Shown here piece after piece: positions 1,495-59,000 of a stretch of 64,000 bases of DNA (position 1 is its first letter; every line of letters starts with the position of its first letter). The translations under genes were made by a program, and so were the position numbers. Source of the DNA: Candidatus Rokubacteria bacterium RIFCSPLOWO2_02_FULL_73_56 (GTDB taxonomy: Bacteria > Methylomirabilota > Methylomirabilia > Rokubacteriales > CSP1-6). The notes beneath the pieces are model-generated. The model was not told the origin of the DNA. It saw only the letters and a program-made list of their open reading frames with translations, and did no database searches. Location of the stretch: assembly GCA_001788495.1 (NCBI GenBank), contig MGCF01000114.1:1074-65073 (forward strand). The letters run 5' to 3'.

Positions 1495-1669
1495 GGTCCC
1501 TCCCCGCGGCCCGGGGCCGGCCGCTGGCCGCACGATAGGGCGACGACCGCCCGCGATCAAGCGGCGGCGGCGCGCGCGAGGAGACCGGCGCAGACGCGCA
1601 CCGACGTCAGGATCGTGACCCTGGGGGACGGCGTGCTGGAGGGGGGAGCCGTCCGGCGCCGGCAAGGAA

Positions 1670-1690
1670 CGTGTCAGACGGTCTGACACG
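1670..1690. promoter_or_regulatory. Perfect 21-bp palindrome CGTGTCAGAC-G-GTCTGACACG, plus a third GTGTCAG half-site at 1695-1701; candidate enhancer/operator (UAS)
   Basis: Read directly: 10-bp inverted arms with no mismatch around a central G, in the divergent intergenic region. Its centre is 94 bp upstream of the sigma-54 -24 GG. Confidence 0.55.
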
Positions 1691-1772
1691 AGTCGTGTCA
1701 GTCAGGCGCCAGGGTGGCACATTGGCATTCGACAACGCAATCTTTCCGGATGGTTGACGATTCGATTGGCTG

Positions 1773-1788
1773 TGGCACCTTGCTTGCT
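1773..1788 (+). promoter_or_regulatory. Sigma-54 (RpoN) promoter, exact -24/-12 consensus TGGCAC-N5-TTGCT
   Basis: tgTGGCACcttgcTTGCTttttt. The GG is at 1774-1775 and the GC at 1786-1787, with the canonical spacing. The local region 1700-1835 is distinctly less GC-rich than its surroundings. Predicted TSS near 1799, ahead of the RBS GGAGGGAGG (1818-1826) and ATG 1834. Confidence 0.6.
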
Positions 1789-1833
1789 TTTTTCGAGCGT
1801 CAGCAGCTTTGCCAGGCGGAGGGAGGTGTCACC

Positions 1834-17000: not shown

Positions 17001-20000
17001 GCGTCACCGTCCAGTCTTCGCCCGGCCGCACCGCGCCCGGCAGCGTGATCTGGGCGGTCGTGAAGGCGATGGCCGGGACGTCGCCCTGCGACAGCGGCGT
17101 GCCGCCGATGGTCGCCGTGCCCTGCGGGGCGGCGCCGGCAACCGTGAAGGACAGCGTGAACCCGGCCGCGCGCGTGATCGTCAGCGTGTCGCCGAGGCTC
17201 GAGCCCGTGCCGGCGCCGAGCGCGGTGTTCAGCGAGCCGGCCAGCGCGGCGGCGATGCTGGTCAGGGTGTCGCCCACCAGCACCGTCCGGGCGGCCGTGG
17301 TGGCGCCGCCGTCCAGCGTGACCGACCACACCTCGCCGGCGGCCGGCGCGCCCGCCAGCCCCACGTTGGCCGTGCCGAAGGTGATCGGGGTCGTGCCGTC
17401 CGCCGCGAGCGCCTGCGTCGACCGGGTCACCGTGGCGGTCTTCCGGGCCTCCTGGGCGACGCCGTTGACGGTCAGGCCGTGCAGGTTGAAGCCGTTCGGG
17501 TCGGTGATCGTCAACGCGCCGTTGGCCGCGACGGTCACCGTGTACCGCGCCGGCAGCAGGTTCCTGAGACCCGTGCTGACGTCGTCCAGCGAATTGTCGC
17601 CCGGCTGCACCGTGTAGGCGTAGTCCCGGTACCGGAGGCCGAGCGTCCACGTGTCGCCGGCGGCGACACGGCCGTTCGGCAGCAGCGTCACGCTGGTGAA
17701 GAACGGCCCGTTCGGGTCCACCACCGTGCCGGCCGTGGCCGCCGGCGACTGGGCGAACGCCGACGGGTTCAGCATGGCCGCGGTGATCTCGAACGAGTAG
17801 AGGTCGAAGCTGCCGTCGCCCGAGCCCTGGATCCGCGCGAACGGCGTCGAGAAGGTGATGTTCGAGCCGTTGCCGACCTCGGGGTCGAAGAACGTGAAGA
17901 AGTTGTCGCGGTCGTCGATGTCCTGCGCCGCCCCGCCCGCCTGGAGGCTCTCGTTCTCCAGCACCGCCGACGGCGCGAACACGAAGTCGGCCGTCTCGTG
18001 CTGCTCGATCGACACCTGCAGCGTGTAGTCCACGCCGACGGGCAGGCCGGAGGTGAACAGCCAGCTCGTGACCTCGAGGTAGTACCGGCCCGCCTGGGTG
18101 AACGTGAAGGCCAGGAAGTCGTCGAGCCACGTCGTGCTGCCGCCCGCGCCGGCCGTGAGCGGGTCGGAGAAGCCCCGGCCCTGCGCGATGCGGTCGCCGT
18201 TGGCGTTGTAGAGCCTGAGCAGGCTGAGCCACAGGATGCGGTCGCCGAACTCGAACCCGTGGTCGATGTCGAAGCTCGCCTGCACGCCGTTCGACCCGGC
18301 GTCGGCCAGCATCTCCGCCGTGATCTCGAACGAGTAGAAGTCCGGGTCGCCGTTGCCGGTGCCGAGCACGGTCAGGTGCGGCTCGAGCGCGGGGTCGCCG
18401 GTCACGCTGGCGATGTCCGGGTGCGCGTTGCGGCTCCAGTCGCCCAGCCCGAGGTCCTGCGCGGTGAAGGTCGAGTTGTGGAACTGGACCTCGTTGAGCA
18501 CGGCCGTCCCGAAGTCGCCGATGAACTGGTTCGACGCCAGGCTGCCGCCCACCTGCGTGACGTAGCCGTCGCCCAGGAGCACGAACTGGGTGGGCTCGAC
18601 GACAGTCGTCCCGCCGTGCGTCTCGCGGACGAGGACGGTCGGCGCGTCGTCGTCGGTGAGCCGGACGTCCACGGGGCCGGGCTGCGTGACCTCGCCGTTG
18701 GCCCCCGCCGTGTAGACGTAGGTCGCCACGTCGCCGCTCCGGGCGTCCGCGAGCCCCAGCGTCCAGGCGTCGCCGGCCCCGATCACGCCGCTGCCGGCCA
18801 GCGTGATCTGGACCTCGGTGTAGAACGCGGCGCTCGTGGGCGCGAGGGCGGTGCCCGAGCCGCCGGTGAACGACGCCGTGAACGCGCTGCCGTCGTCGGC
18901 CGTCACGTGCAGGACGTTGCCGCTCAGCGTGGCCTCGAACGGCTGGCCGGACGCGTTGACCAGGCCTGCCAGCGTGGCGGCGACGGCGGCGGGAGCGGCG
19001 AGGAACCCGCCGACCGTGCTGTAGATCGACCCGTTGAGGTTCAGGGAGAACAGGGTGCCGCCGAGCGACAGCGAGTCGCCGACGACGGCGTCCACCGACG
19101 TGTAGCGCGCCGTGCCGACATTGGTGAACGTCGCCGTCCCGAAGGTCGTCGCCAGCGAGTCCACGCCGAACGGCGCGTCCGTGTTGGTGAGGGTCAGGAC
19201 GTTGCCCGCCACGCCGGCCGTGTAGGCGGCCGTGAGGTCGCCGGCGACCTGGGCGCCGAGGCCGCGCGCCGCGTCGGCGAGCGTGATCCCGAGGAACTCG
19301 TCGGTCTCCGACGTGATGGCGTGGGCCACGCGCGAGAAGTGGATCCCTTCCCTCTTCGCGTCGTCGACGGCCTGGATCTCGACGACCTTCAGCGTGTTCC
19401 AGTTCCCCGGCGTGAAGGTCAGGACCTGGCTGGCCGCCCACGTGCTGGTGCCGAACTCGCGCACCAGGACCTCGCCGTCGGCCGAGACGGCGACGGTGAC
19501 CGTGCCCACCGGCGCCTTGCTCAGGACCACCGCGTAGGCGTCCGTGGCCGGCAGCGAGCCCGACGGGTTCTCGGAGACCAGGGTGTCGTCGTCGGCGCGC
19601 TGGCTCGTCTCGTCGAACGGCACCACCACGACCTCGGCGGCGTCGTCGTCGATCACCTGCACGGGCAGGCTCGCCAGCGCCAGGCCGTCGTACGGGTCGC
19701 CGTCGTCGGCGTTGGCGCCCTCCACCACCGTGTGCAGGATCGTGATGCCCCGGTGGCCCTCGGCCAGCCCGTCGTCGATGGCCGTCACCGTCACGTGCTG
19801 CGGGATGAACCAGTTGTTCTTGTCGAACAGCAGGGTCACGCCCGCCTCGTTGCCGTTGAGCGCGATGCCGGCGCCGCCCGCCTTCTTCTCGCGCTCACGG
19901 CCCGCGGACGGGGCGGCCGTGATGCGGACGTTCTCCAGCGGGGCCCGCGTGAGCACGATGTCGTAGCTGGCCACCACCAGCTCGTCCGGGGCGGCCGGGT

Positions 20001-23000: not shown

Positions 23001-26000
23001 GGTCGGCCATGCTCACGCTGAAGGTCCCGACGAGCGGCTGGCCGTCGAGCAGGACTTTGAGGAACTGGTCCGGGCGGCCCGCCTTCAGCGTGAACTGCTG
23101 CGTGGCCGCGCCGTCACGCGTGAACGTGAACTCCTCGGTGCGGTTCTTGCCCACCGTCTCGGCCGTGTGGAGCGCGACCGCGCCCAGCGCGTCGAGGACC
23201 AGGTTGCCCTGGCTGTCCACGATCGGCTGGCCGACCTGGAGCGGCTCGTTGCCGAAGTACTGCTGCGGGTCGTCCGCGTCGTGGACGGCCGGCGTCGCGA
23301 TCACGACCGTCACCGTCACCTGGGCGCCCGCGGTCGGCACGGCGCTCGACAGCGTGAGCGTGTTGTCGGTCGCGTTCACGGCGAAGGCCGAGGCGGCCAG
23401 GCTGAAGATCCGCGTGCCGTCGTACACGGTCACCGCGACCTGGTCGGCGGCCCCGAGGTCGTAGGCGAAGCCCGCGACCGTGTCCAGGTCGAGGACGGTG
23501 CCGCCCGGCAGCGAGGCGCGCGTGAAGGCGACCGGCGTGTACAGCGTGCCCTCCGGCACCAGGTCGCCCTGCGCGTCCACCAGGTCGTACACGCGCTCGA
23601 GCCGGTTGTGGATCTGGACCTGGTCGGCGCCGTGCAGGAACGCCGAGCCGTCGCCGTTGAACACCTGGGCGCCGTTCTCGTCGAACACCGGCTCGCCGCC
23701 CAGGTACCGCTGGAAGGCGCCGCCGAGCTGGTAGACGGGCTCGCCGGCCGTGTGCAGCAGCGGGTCGCCCGCCTCGTGCAGCAGCGCCGCGCCGAACGGA
23801 TCGCGCAGCACCTTCGGGTTGCCGAAGGCGTCCTTCGCGAAGAGGTCGACGACCACGTCGCCCGCCGCGTGGACCAGCGGGACGTGCGTGAACGGATCGA
23901 GCACCGGCTCGCCGCCGAAGTAGAGCTCCTGCACCGGCGACTGCCAGTAGGTCGCCACGCCCGCGCCGTGGAGGATCGGGCGGCCCTGCGCGTCGAGGTC
24001 GGCCACCGGGATGCGGTAGGTGGCGAGCGTCGCGCTCACGTCCGTCGCGTCCCCGGTGTTCACGAGGTTCAGCACGTCGGTGCCGCCGCCGCCCGCCGCG
24101 ATCGAGTCGAAGACGCGGACGAAGTCGCGCAGCTCGGTCACGTTGACGGGCACGAGCGACGGGCGGTTGACGCCGGGGAACACGTCCGTCTTGCGCCCGG
24201 AGGCGTCGATCCACAGGTTCACCGCCGACGCGCTCGAGAAGTCGGTGATGAAGCTCCTGGTGTTTTTCGCGCGGATCACGATGTTGTCGATCTCGTACGA
24301 GGCGTCCTGGCCGTTGCGCTCGCCGGCGAACGCCACCGTGGCGTGGTCGCCGGTCGCGGTGAACTCCGCGGTGAAGCTCTGGAACGGCCCGCTCGCCGGC
24401 GCCTGGGACTTGCGCGCCTGGAACTTGACGGCGCCGTCCACGAGCACGGCGAACGAGGTCGGGGCGGTGCCGGAGTCGCTCCCGTACTGCGCGTAGATGT
24501 TCCGGTACTGACCCGTGATCTGGTACGTCACCCCCGGGTTCAGGTTCGCGAGCGTCTGCTGGATCGTCGGGTCGCTGCCGGCCGCGCCGTTGCTGTTCAG
24601 GACGTACGTCTGGTTCGTGACCGTGCTGATCCGGAAGAACGGGAACGTGCCCGTGAACTCGAACGTGAAGAACAGGATGTTGCTCCGCCAGCCGCCGTTG
24701 CCGTCGATGTTGAAGGTGCTGAACCCGCCCGCGGTGCCGTTGAGCGGCACGAAGTCGTCGAAGTCGCCGTTGGTGGCGATGTCCGTGCCGAGCTGCTCGA
24801 ACACCTTGTCGAAGCTCGTGTCCACGTAGACCTGCTTCACCGGCCCTTCCTGGCTCGAGTCCGCGGGCACGATGACCGGGATGCCGGTGGACGTCGCGAG
24901 GTCGGTGATCTCGTTGCCCTCGGCGTCGAAGTAGAGCGGGGCGCCGGCGGCCAGGCCGTTGGCGGTCTTGTGCTTGCCGAACTCCGCCACGCCCTTCTCC
25001 TGGACGAGCTTCTCGACGATCGCGCCGCCCTCGTCGAGCACGACCGTCCGCGCCTGCAGCGCCGAGCCGTTGCCGGCGACGGCGTCCGTGTCCTTGAGGA
25101 TCGGCACCATCGTCGCCCTGAAGTAGAGCGTGCCGTCGCTGGCGACGAACGGGTGCGCGAAGTCGTTGACGATGCCGGTGGTGCCGAGCGGCACGAGCAC
25201 GATCTTCGCCGTGAGGAACGGCTGCAGGAACGCCTCGTCGTCGCGCACCGGGTCCGGGTGCTCGCTGAGCGCGGCGTCGCCGTCCACGGTGAGGCGGTCG
25301 ATGATCTGGGCCAGCCGGTCGTCCGGCGCCTGCACGGTGATGACGTCGTTGCCGTCGCCGCCGTTGACGTGCGTCGGCCCGCCGACGGACTTGATCTGGA
25401 TGGTGTCGTTGCCGCCGCCCGCCCAGATCAGCACGCTGGTGCCGGCCGGCGTCTCGGTCACCGTGAAGTTGTCGGCGCCGTCGTCGGCGGCCTTGCCGGG
25501 GGAGGCCGAGCGCCCGTCGGCCAGCCGCAGCTCGACGTTCTCGATACCGCCGAGCTCGACGCCGTGATAGACCGTCGTGTCCTGCGCCGCCTTGCCGCCG
25601 GCCGGGATGCCGAGGCCCGCGCCCTCGAGGCTCAGCACCGTGTCGAAGATCGGGGCGCCGTTCTCGTCGTGGTCCGGCCCGAAGATCGGGATGCCGTCGT
25701 TGCGCAGCTCGCCCGCCTCGTCGACGACGCCGTCGGCGTCGTCGTCGATCCCCGGCAGGCCCGGCACGAAGCGCGGGATCTCGCCGATCTGCGTCATCCG
25801 CTGCGTGGTGCGCAGCCGCAGCTCGCCGGCGGGCGAGGTCCCCTCCTGGTTGTGGTAGATCACGCGGTCGCCGTCCGTCTCGAACTGGTCGCCGCCGTTG
25901 ATGGTCAGGCGGCCGCGGATCTCGGAGGCGTCGAGGCTCCGGTCGGCCTTGAAGGCGAACGGCAGCGGATCGACCTCGACCGGCGGCGGCTGGATCAGCT

Positions 26001-56000: not shown

Positions 56001-59000
56001 GCGGCGCGCGGATGCGCGTCACCGTCTGCCCGCCGTCGAAGCTCTCGTAGAGGCCGCGGTTGCCGACCAGGAGGCGGAGCGCATCGACCGGGCTCAGGGC
56101 CATCGGCAGCGGGATCCGGAACTCGCTCCGTTCCTCGGCGTCCATGCCCGCCAGCCTCACCCGCAGGGAGTCCGCAGCCAGGTGGGGGCCGTCGGCGAAG
56201 GTGAGGTTGACGTTCTGGTCGTTGTAGTGCTTGACGAAGAAGAAGCGGAAGTCGTTGTTGGTCGTGTAGAAGTACGCCTCGGTCGAGGTCGAGCCGGCCG
56301 GGCCGTTGACCGCCGTGCGCACGTCGTTGGCGGTGGACACGGTGGTCCGGACGCTGACGAGCAGCGTCCGGGTCTGCGCGTTGTAGCTGGCCGTCTCCGT
56401 CCCTTCCGCGTGGTCCACGAACCGGACCGTCACGCCGTTCCACCGGGCGCCGACGACGGCGGCCTCGAAGGTCATCGCGTTGTTGCCGGCCCCGCTGGCG
56501 GGCACGACCAGCGTCGCCTTCGCGCCGTTCGTGCCTCCCGCCGTCACGGCCGGTGTGTCGCCGCCGGCGAAGGTCCCGCTGCCGTCGTGGTTCGCGTCGC
56601 CGGCGCCGCGCGCCGCCGTGAAGGTGCCCTCGGTGGTGATCAGCGCGATGACCTGATCGGCCGTCGTGCCGGCCGTCAGCTGGATGCCGAGGGTCGGCGT
56701 CGCGCCCGCCGTGAAGGACACGTGGACGGGGCCCACGCCGATGTCCTGGACCGAGACGGTCAGGTTGTTCAGGTCCGCGCCGCCGCGGTTGGCCACGAGC
56801 ACGATGGCGTTGCTCGGGCCGGCCGGGTTGAGCTCGCCGACCGCGCGCAGGGCATCCAGCCCGCCGGTGGCGCCGGCCACGGGCGGGGCGACCGTGGTCA
56901 CGTCGATGGTCCCCGCGCCCGTGTCGGGGCCGGCGGGCGGCAGCAGGACGAACGGTCGGAGGTCGAGCCCCGCGAGCGACGTGTTGCCGTCGCCGGCGCC
57001 CACCGTCAGGAAGTCGCCGGCCGAGTCGCTGACCAGCTGCTGCTGGGAGGCCGCGTCCTGGGCGCCCGTGATGAAGGTGTCGTTGAGCGGGTCGTAGCCC
57101 AGGCTGTAGAGCTCGCCCAGCGCCAGGTTGCCGCCGAGGACCTGCCAGTACCGCGCCGAGGGCGGCCCGTGCGGGTTCACGAGACGGGCCAGGCCGCCGT
57201 CGTTGGCCTGGAGCACGTTGCCCGCCCCGTCGAAGACCATCGTCCGGGCGTCGGAGTGCGGCGCCGTCCCCGTGACGTAGACCGGCGGCTGCTCGACGAG
57301 GCTCCAGGCGAGCCCGGCGTCCGAGACGCCGCTGTCGTTGATGTTCGCCGTGGCGTTGCCCAGTGCGGCGCCGGTGTAGCGGAAGACCGTGCCGCCGTTG
57401 GTCGCCACGGCGCCGGCGACCGTGCGGAAGATCGCCTTGTGCGTCGTGCCGTCGGGGCCGTTCGGGACGTTCTCGAGCTGGGCGAAGTTCCGGCCTCCCG
57501 GCACGGTCACGGGGATGTCCACGGTGCGCTGGCCGAGCCCGTCGAAGCTGGCGCCCGCGAGGTAGGCGATGCGATAGATGTACGTCTGGCCGGGGACGAG
57601 CTGCCCGCCCGCCGGGAACGACGCGTGCCCCACGGGGACGTTGAAGAACCTGACGGTGATGCCGGCCACGCTCGGCGGCGCGTACACGCTGGTGAGGACC
57701 CGGGCCGGGGGCAGCGTCGCGTCGGCGGCGAGGTCGACGATCCGCGTCGCGAGCACCGGGACCGTCGGGCCGAGCGGGTCCCGGCGCAGCTGGTGGAAGA
57801 TCTCGCCGTTCAGCTTGGTCCGCCAGATGATGCGGCCCACCGTGCCCGCCGGACCCTCCGGGAGGTTGGTGAGGACGACGGCGTCGTCGGCGCCGCCGAC
57901 GACGACCGAGAACTCCGGCGACGGCGAGCTCACCTGGCCGTCCGCGGCGACGAACGAGATCCGATAGCGGTACGTGCCGGCGGCCAGAGCGCCGCCGAGG
58001 TTCGCGGCGGTCGCCGTGGTGTTCGGCAGCAGGTCCGCCGGGGCGTTCTGCAGACGGTCCCAGAGGATCGGCTCGGTCAGGAGCGCCGCGTCCGACATCG
58101 CGTCGTCGACCGACGCGCCGTCGGCCACGCGCCGCTCGGCGACCAGGTGGTACTCGCCGTCGGGCAGCGCGTCCAGGCCCGCTCCGCCCGGGAACGCCGC
58201 GGGCGTGACGCCGACGTTCCACGTCCGGTAGACCTTCCAGGCGACCACGTTCGAGCCCGCGGGGAAGCCCGTCGGCGCCGTGATCCGCACGGTCTGGTTG
58301 CCGCCGCCGAGGTCCACGCGGATCCGGTCGGAGGCGACCATCTCGCGGCCGTCGGCGTTCACGTACGTGATCCGGTAGTAGTACCGGCCGTTCGCCGCGA
58401 GCGCGCCGCCCGCCTGCGGGTCGAGCGTGAAGGCGTCGGCGTCCGGGAGGGCGGCCGCGCGCCCGGTCGGCTGGAACGAGCCGGTCGCCTGCCGGCCGAC
58501 CACCTCGGTCGTGGTACCGGCCGTCGTGTCCACGCGGAAGATGCGCCCGTCGAGCTGCAGCGTGTGCTCGAAGCCGGGCGTGGCGACGTTGGTGTCGCCC
58601 GCGATGAGGAACACGTTGGGGTTGCCGGGATCGGCGACGAAGGCGAGGTGCAGCCCCCACTGGCCGCCGGGGTTGAGCCCGAGCGGCGTCGGCGCGTCGT
58701 CCTGGATCTCCAGCGTGACCGGGCCGTTGTCCACGAACGTCCACGTGCCGCGGGCGCCCAGCGTGTCGTTCGTGTTGGCCGACGTGAGGACGCGGTTGAG
58801 CTGCGCGCCCTTGACGCCGGACGGGGGCGCGACCACCGCGTAGACCGTGGTCGCGTGGACGTTGGCCGGGTCGAGCGAGGGGCGCCCGTCCGGCTCCAGC
58901 ACGAAGCTCGCGGCGAACACGATCCGCCCCGCGTCGAGCCCGCGCGTCGTGAAGTCGTACGTGCGGTTCACGGCGGCGACGACCTCCTCCACCCGGGTGA

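Follow-up and report, generated by a model that had tools for sequence, protein, structure and literature searches.

Sigma-54 promoters have as their hallmark TGGCAC-N5-TTGCW, with GG at -24 and GC at -12. The closed complex formed there by the sigma-54 holoenzyme opens only via ATP hydrolysis by an enhancer-bound AAA+ activator. In the best known systems the activator recognises a characteristic site: the consensus is TGCACC-N5-GGTGCA for NtrC, TGT-N10-ACA for the upstream activator-binding site (UAS) of NifA, and GT-N7-AC for NorR. We know of no promoter that has been studied before in the Rokubacteria/Methylomirabilota lineage.

In this work we analysed a stretch of 64,000 nucleotides from a Candidatus Rokubacteria contig (the window). 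An earlier note had proposed that a small open reading frame in it is expressed from a sigma-54 promoter, under the control of an activator (bEBP) bound at a palindromic UAS. Our comparison with related loci indicates that the element at 1773-1788 is, with high probability, a true sigma-54 (RpoN) promoter served by an activator-binding site further upstream. For the full reading, a functional promoter that is activated by a bEBP from upstream dyads and that serves the 65-aa ORF, we estimate a probability of about 0.8.

The window has a G+C content of 72% and contains a single intergenic region, the 339 bp between the divergent gene and the small ORF. Around positions 1700-1800 the G+C content drops from about 75% to 54%, and this dip, followed by the Shine-Dalgarno sequence and the ATG, fits a layout of promoter, leader and coding sequence (Table 1). 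The 65-aa protein and the adjoining methyltransferase are both identical to proteins of Candidatus Rokubacteria MAGs (contig MGCJ01000141, GCA_001790345.1). Nearly all of the remaining window is filled by a giant ORF on the minus strand (2047-63909; 20,620 aa, or 22,240 aa as called on contig L002), in which repeated modules number in the hundreds and which also has an RTX-like GGxGxD region and a His-rich stretch at the C-terminus. Only the window lineage has this giant gene; in relatives its place is taken by ordinary genes. The small ORF had been described as lying in the 3' flank of the giant gene. The two are indeed convergent there, but the link appears to be incidental, and we rejected a functional connection because relatives of the locus lack the giant gene.

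Table 1. Positions of the sequence features of the intergenic region and the genes on either side, in window coordinates
Feature	Positions	Strand	Remarks
Divergent gene	418-1494	minus	Rv2258c-like winged-helix and SAM-methyltransferase protein
Sigma-70-like element TTGATC-N17-TATCGT	1532-1560	minus	Read from the sequence; context, outside the sigma-54 unit
Distal dyad CGGCA-AGGAACG-TGTCA	1660-1676		Scores 9/10 at -113; 24 bp upstream of the proximal dyad
Perfect 21-bp palindrome CGTGTCAGAC-G-GTCTGACACG	1670-1690		10-nt arms, 1-nt centre
Proximal dyad TGACA-CGAGTCG-TGTCA	1684-1700		Candidate bEBP-binding UAS; conserved TGRCA-N7-TGYCA
Pentamer pair TGGCA-CAT-TGGCA	1715-1727		Between the candidate UAS and the promoter
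Spacer block GCAATCTTTCCGGA...TTGAC	1737-1758	plus	Conserved in the window group; may bind a DNA-bending or auxiliary protein
Sigma-54 -24/-12 element TGGCAC-CTTGC-TTGCT	1773-1788	plus	Exact consensus match; GG 1774-1775, GC 1786-1787
Predicted transcription start	1798-1800	plus	Standard sigma-54 geometry, 12 nt after the C of the -12 GC (1787)
Shine-Dalgarno sequence GGAGGGAGG	1818-1826	plus	GGAGGTG kept 5-9 nt before the ATG in all relatives
65-aa ORF (MAEFKRIKIRATL...AYDG)	1834-2031	plus	Gene that the promoter would serve

The main reading is carried by the conservation of the promoter element. The spacing of TGGCAC-N5-TTGCT is exact, and the element lies on the coding strand, 61 nt before the ATG of the small ORF. 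Exact TGGCAC-N5-TTGC occurs once in the window, against 0.07 expected per shuffled window. For phylogenetic footprinting we used the upstream regions of exact and diverged copies of the locus from 15 distinct lineages, with protein identities of 34-98%. TGGCA[CT]-N5-TTGC[TG] is kept 56-75 nt before the ATG in 15/15 lineages. When the upstream regions are anchored on the element, pairwise identity is 94% at its 11 specified positions versus 36% in 59 flanking positions, a level that looks essentially random. Each locus has one copy of the pattern, and the roughly 400 kb of Rokubacteria DNA searched contain no other on either strand. Contigs L012 and L013 retain GTGGCA-CT-GCTTGCT despite an upstream region that is about 65% identical and a different upstream gene. 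In addition, three lineages that were fetched after the motifs had been defined fit the predictions for both the -24/-12 element and the upstream dyad discussed below. Both claims, that this is a -24/-12 element and that it is the promoter of the small ORF, are therefore upheld by the footprint. Transcription is predicted to start near 1799, which would leave a 5'UTR of about 35 nt, and a consensus scan of 1300-2300 detected no sigma-70-type promoter.

The same comparison shows mosaic recombination with its breakpoint at the promoter/CDS junction (L011 2697-3233; L012 385-787; also L013). In L011 the upstream region differs from that of the window at 1 of 339 nt, yet the CDS has a dS of 0.30. 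In L012 and L013, on the other hand, the CDS is near-identical to that of the window and the upstream region is only about 65% identical; the upstream gene there is not the one in the window and encodes an AMP-binding C-terminus.

Upstream of the promoter, the perfect 21-bp palindrome reported by the earlier note is present and centred at 1680, 94 bp from the -24 GG. The reported third half-site, CGTGTCAG, can also be found at 1694-1701, where it forms with 1683-1691 a second, overlapping perfect palindrome, CTGACACGA-G-TCGTGTCAG. The proposal that the palindrome is the UAS holds in part. There is an inverted repeat at UAS distance, but the conserved unit is the dyad at 1684-1700 and not the 21-bp palindrome. 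A perfect palindrome with arms of at least 10 nt is by itself not unusual in a window of 72% G+C, in which four distinct ones occur versus about 1.9 in Markov simulations. Only the copy at 1670-1690 is intergenic. The other three lie inside the giant gene (17650-17670, 25722-25744 and 57882-57904; arms 10-11 nt); such palindromes, for example CGTGTCGCCG-G-CGGCGACACG, are G+C-rich and coding, and their number is as chance expects.

The palindrome is unchanged only in window-type contigs (L001-L011). Its positions are non-palindromic in L012, L013, L019 and more distant relatives, and the sister lineage L012/L019 reads CGGATCAGTCGCGCTGGCACC there, which is not a palindrome. Searching 185,579 species-representative genomes for GTGTCAGAC-N-GTCTGACAC gave three matches, in the unrelated taxa Planctomycetales, Dermatophilaceae and Corallococcus; this number is at or below chance, and no regulon copy is among them. 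We also considered whether the palindrome is an intrinsic terminator, and rejected this because it has no T tract and there is no upstream convergent gene.

TGNCA pentamers accumulate in this region, with six of the window's 30 falling in 1655-1790 against 0.06 expected, and they recur every 12 bp at 1660, 1672, 1684 and 1696. The proximal dyad consists of the right half of the palindrome together with the third half-site, and is centred 12 bp nearer to the promoter than the palindrome is. This places its centre about 81 bp upstream of the T in TGGCAC and roughly at -107 from the predicted start. A match to TGRCA-N7-TGYCA of at least 8/10 is found in every lineage, usually as the single such match in 200 nt. 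Its left arm lies at -79/-80 or at -88 to -92 from the T of TGGCAC, two distance classes that differ by about one helical turn. The probability of such a dyad in shuffled sequence is about 0.01 per lineage; since the motif came from the very sequences tested, this value is post hoc. The dyad of many relatives reads TGGCAC-N5-GTGCCA and so resembles a -24/-12 element, which means that part of its conservation could have another cause.

A second, distal dyad lies further upstream in the window. A corresponding pair is seen in L020, where the dyads stand at -113 and -90, and in L012/L019 the distal dyad is degenerate. The palindrome at 1670-1690 overlaps both dyads of the window, taking in the right arm of the distal one and the left arm of the proximal one (TGTCA-N7-TGACA). 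Given this layout of two dyads in the window and likewise in L020, the perfect palindrome is best read as the place where two tandem dyads meet. We suggest TGRCA-N7-TGYCA as a candidate activator-binding motif.

It could be asked whether the dyad is instead the operator of a conventional dimeric HTH regulator, either a repressor or a class-I activator, perhaps acting on the divergent methyltransferase gene, next to a sigma-54 promoter that is real. Many HTH families typically use dyads of about 17 bp, the genes on either side of the site are divergent in the window, and no bEBP is encoded nearby. However, the distance of the dyad is locked to the -24 element (-79 to -92) and not to the upstream gene. 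It stays constant while that gene varies in identity, orientation and distance, being a divergent Rv2258c-like methyltransferase gene, a different divergent methyltransferase gene, or a co-directional AMP-binding or hypothetical gene. A dyad whose distance is fixed to the promoter while the neighbour changes would belong to the control region of the small ORF. The methyltransferase gene, moreover, seems to have a sigma-70-like promoter of its own, at a distance of more than 100 bp. We suppose that TTGATC-N17-TATCGT serves this gene; it lies about 40-65 bp upstream of the methyltransferase start and scores below the threshold of our consensus scan. L020 has a counterpart in the same arrangement, TTGATC-N17-TATTGT. 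Finally, sigma-54 promoters need an activator, and the dyad is the sole conserved one at UAS distance. For these reasons we consider an HTH operator unlikely.

A further alternative takes the upstream TGGCAC-like elements not for activator sites but for extra sigma-54 sites that act as a tandem or decoy promoter. In L012, L019, L021 and L022 the dyad reads TGGCAC-N5-[GA]TGCC, which fits a relaxed -24/-12 pattern. The window itself has TGACAC-GAGTC-GTGTC, which excludes a second sigma-54 site there, because GA and GT stand where GG and GC are required and both invariant dinucleotides are thus destroyed. The same or a partial loss of the dinucleotides is seen in L031, L023, L027, L024 and L035. 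The changes between lineages are also mostly symmetric (TGACA/TGTCA versus TGGCA/TGCCA), as would be expected for a dimer site. All this makes extra sigma-54 sites a very improbable explanation. Separately, we examined the first TGGCAC of the pentamer pair (1715-1720) as a second promoter and rejected it; the stretch 1715-1727 is not a second -24/-12 element because there is no GC at the right spacing for -12. The pentamer pair is kept as CGGCR-CAA-TGACA in L012/L019.

We therefore return to the sigma-54 promoter activated by a bEBP from the dyads. According to this reading, the sigma-54 holoenzyme would bind the -24 GG and the -12 GC as a closed complex that is unable to open alone. A bEBP encoded elsewhere in the genome would bind TGRCA-N7-TGYCA dyads as dimers about 80-115 bp upstream of -24, here at 1684-1700 and, in the window lineage, also at 1660-1676. 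It would then form an ATPase ring and, with the DNA in between looped out, contact the closed complex; the block at 1737-1758 may help to bend this DNA. The open complex would produce a short mRNA from about 1799 that encodes the 65-aa protein and is probably monocistronic, because the convergent gene ends 15 bp after the stop codon of the small ORF. We infer the binding of sigma-54 and the bEBP, the DNA looping, the transcription start and the signal dependence from sequence and comparison; the dependence on a bEBP would follow from the obligate activator requirement of sigma-54.

The spacer block is nearly invariant between the window and L012/L013, whose upstream regions are otherwise about 65% identical, and L020 retains it as AGTCTTTCCGGA..TTGAC. 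Other lineages have at its place either ATC-N8-TTGC or the IHF-like TTTCAAGGGGTTA. The latter is found in three lineages and matches the IHF consensus WATCAANNNNTTR at 12 of 13 positions, while the block of the window is a poor IHF match. It is reasonable to suppose that the spacer block is a site for a bending protein.

The cognate activator would have to be encoded at some distance. As the earlier note had stated, there is no bEBP gene in the window: neither GAFTGA nor ESELFGH occurs in any frame, and the same is true of the RpoN box. None of these three signatures was found in the approximately 385 kb of locus DNA that we scanned. Within 10 kb of the locus there is no rpoN or bEBP gene in any relative examined, and no Sigma54_activat Pfam match among the called neighbours. 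When we searched with a pseudo-consensus RpoN C-terminal query, the 120 listed of 6006 matches were from other phyla only, namely deltaproteobacterial, myxococcal and Nitrospirae fragments. The literature on Rokubacteria yielded no explicit statement on sigma-54. KEGG places the two-component sensors that respond to nitrogen, zinc/lead and acetoacetate in NtrC-family systems that depend on sigma-54. A published genome survey describes sensors of all three kinds in Rokubacteria (Becraft et al. 2017; PMC5712423). By analogy, these sensors are an indirect hint in favour of sigma-54 systems in this group.

The leader between the predicted start and the ATG gave no sign of a structured RNA, with nothing credible in an Rfam scan of 1400-2200 and a fold that is not significant (z = -1.8). 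The leaders of distant lineages have a common TGGTACTCCGTACC element (GGTAC-N3-GTACC) soon after the predicted start (L023 2971-2987; L031 1814-1830; L038 454-470; also L021, L022 and L027, in the last of which it is duplicated). Its fold energy is not significant, and the window leader is without it. That both motifs are due to chance, or are conserved for a reason other than sigma-54 such as a leader-RNA element transcribed from further upstream, is hardly credible: a perfect palindrome with 10-nt arms is alone at chance level in the window and no Rfam family is needed for the region either way, but the asymmetric TGGCAY-N5-TTGCK stands at the same place in 15 lineages amid saturated flanks, and a leader-RNA element is opposed by the missing upstream sigma-70-like promoter, the lack of an Rfam match and the weak fold.

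The 65-aa ORF is a real gene under purifying selection, with a dN/dS of 0.17-0.21 against close relatives. A profile search shows a family of about 48 clusters, with proteins of 63-65 aa and nine invariant residues (M1, F4, R6, A11, L19, L36, E47, E50 and Y63). Those family members that carry organism names are Rokubacteria. Among 1.84 billion representatives, HMMER identified only five true relatives; matches to the repeat proteins P0017-P0019 were rejected as low-complexity or repeat. The protein has no Pfam, NCBIfam or Foldseek match, and a comparison with PDB sequences gave only weak matches at chance level (best E 0.049). The AlphaFold model is of moderate confidence (pLDDT 75), with one helix (residues 22-37) between extended segments. 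In one family member of 146 aa, P0015, the small-protein module is tandemly duplicated within one polypeptide. This duplication leads to the suggestion that the 65-aa protein may act as a dimer.

In relatives the module of promoter and ORF faces a gene for Memo (AmmeMemoRadiSam protein B, TIGR04336), MaoC or the AmmeMemoRadiSam radical-SAM enzyme. For most lineages the small ORF adjoins AmmeMemoRadiSam genes and is convergent to them (L027 10203-12645; L001 7242-8075; also L021, L031 and L038). The neighbour is protein B (TIGR04336) and, in L027, the radical-SAM enzyme TIGR04337, which is interrupted by an intein. MaoC, phosphodiesterase and GAF genes come next after the AmmeMemoRadiSam genes. 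This linkage may be functional or may be simple synteny. One could imagine that the 63-65-aa protein serves the AmmeMemoRadiSam system as a dedicated partner or substrate and is made only on a signal through an undescribed bEBP that recognises TGRCA-N7-TGYCA. The invariant C-terminal Tyr, the conserved Glu and the adjacency to protein B and/or the radical-SAM enzyme can be cited for this, and we regard it as a long shot. To our knowledge, the function of the AmmeMemoRadiSam system is still unknown.

The locus provides a comparatively validated example of a candidate sigma-54 promoter and enhancer in the uncultured, large-genome Rokubacteria/Methylomirabilota. The TGRCA-N7-TGYCA motif can be used to seek the cognate bEBP and its regulon in MAGs. 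It would also seem that the expression of an orphan small protein found throughout the lineage is important enough to be kept under tight, signal-dependent control.

Among known systems, the locus can be compared most directly with the enterobacterial glnAp2/NtrC. Both have a TGGCAC-N5-TTGC promoter, and in both there are two 17-bp dyad sites about 100-140 bp upstream of the start, with whole-helical-turn phasing and, as proposed here, activation by looping. The dyads differ, since TGRCA-N7-TGYCA is not an NtrC site and no NtrC-type dyad TGCACC-N5-GGTGCA occurs in 1495-1833. The target is also different, being a 65-aa orphan protein here and not a metabolic operon. With nifH/NifA and pspA/PspF, in which an IHF site lies between the UAS and the promoter, the locus shares a conserved A/T-containing block in the spacer. 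It has no TGT-N10-ACA, and the palindrome offers a single TGT...ACA pair, TGT-N11-ACA (1672-1688). norV/NorR resembles the locus in having several adjacent sites, comparable to the three to four regular half-sites found here, and by analogy this half-site array could nucleate a higher-order activator oligomer. The site sequence is unlike GT-N7-AC, however, and the multi-site array is limited to the window lineage and L020, with one dyad in the other lineages. The architecture is thus an ordinary sigma-54/UAS arrangement and adds nothing mechanistically to the sigma-54 paradigm. What appears to be new is where it is found, in uncultured Rokubacteria, together with the motif of the dyads and the orphan small protein under its candidate control.
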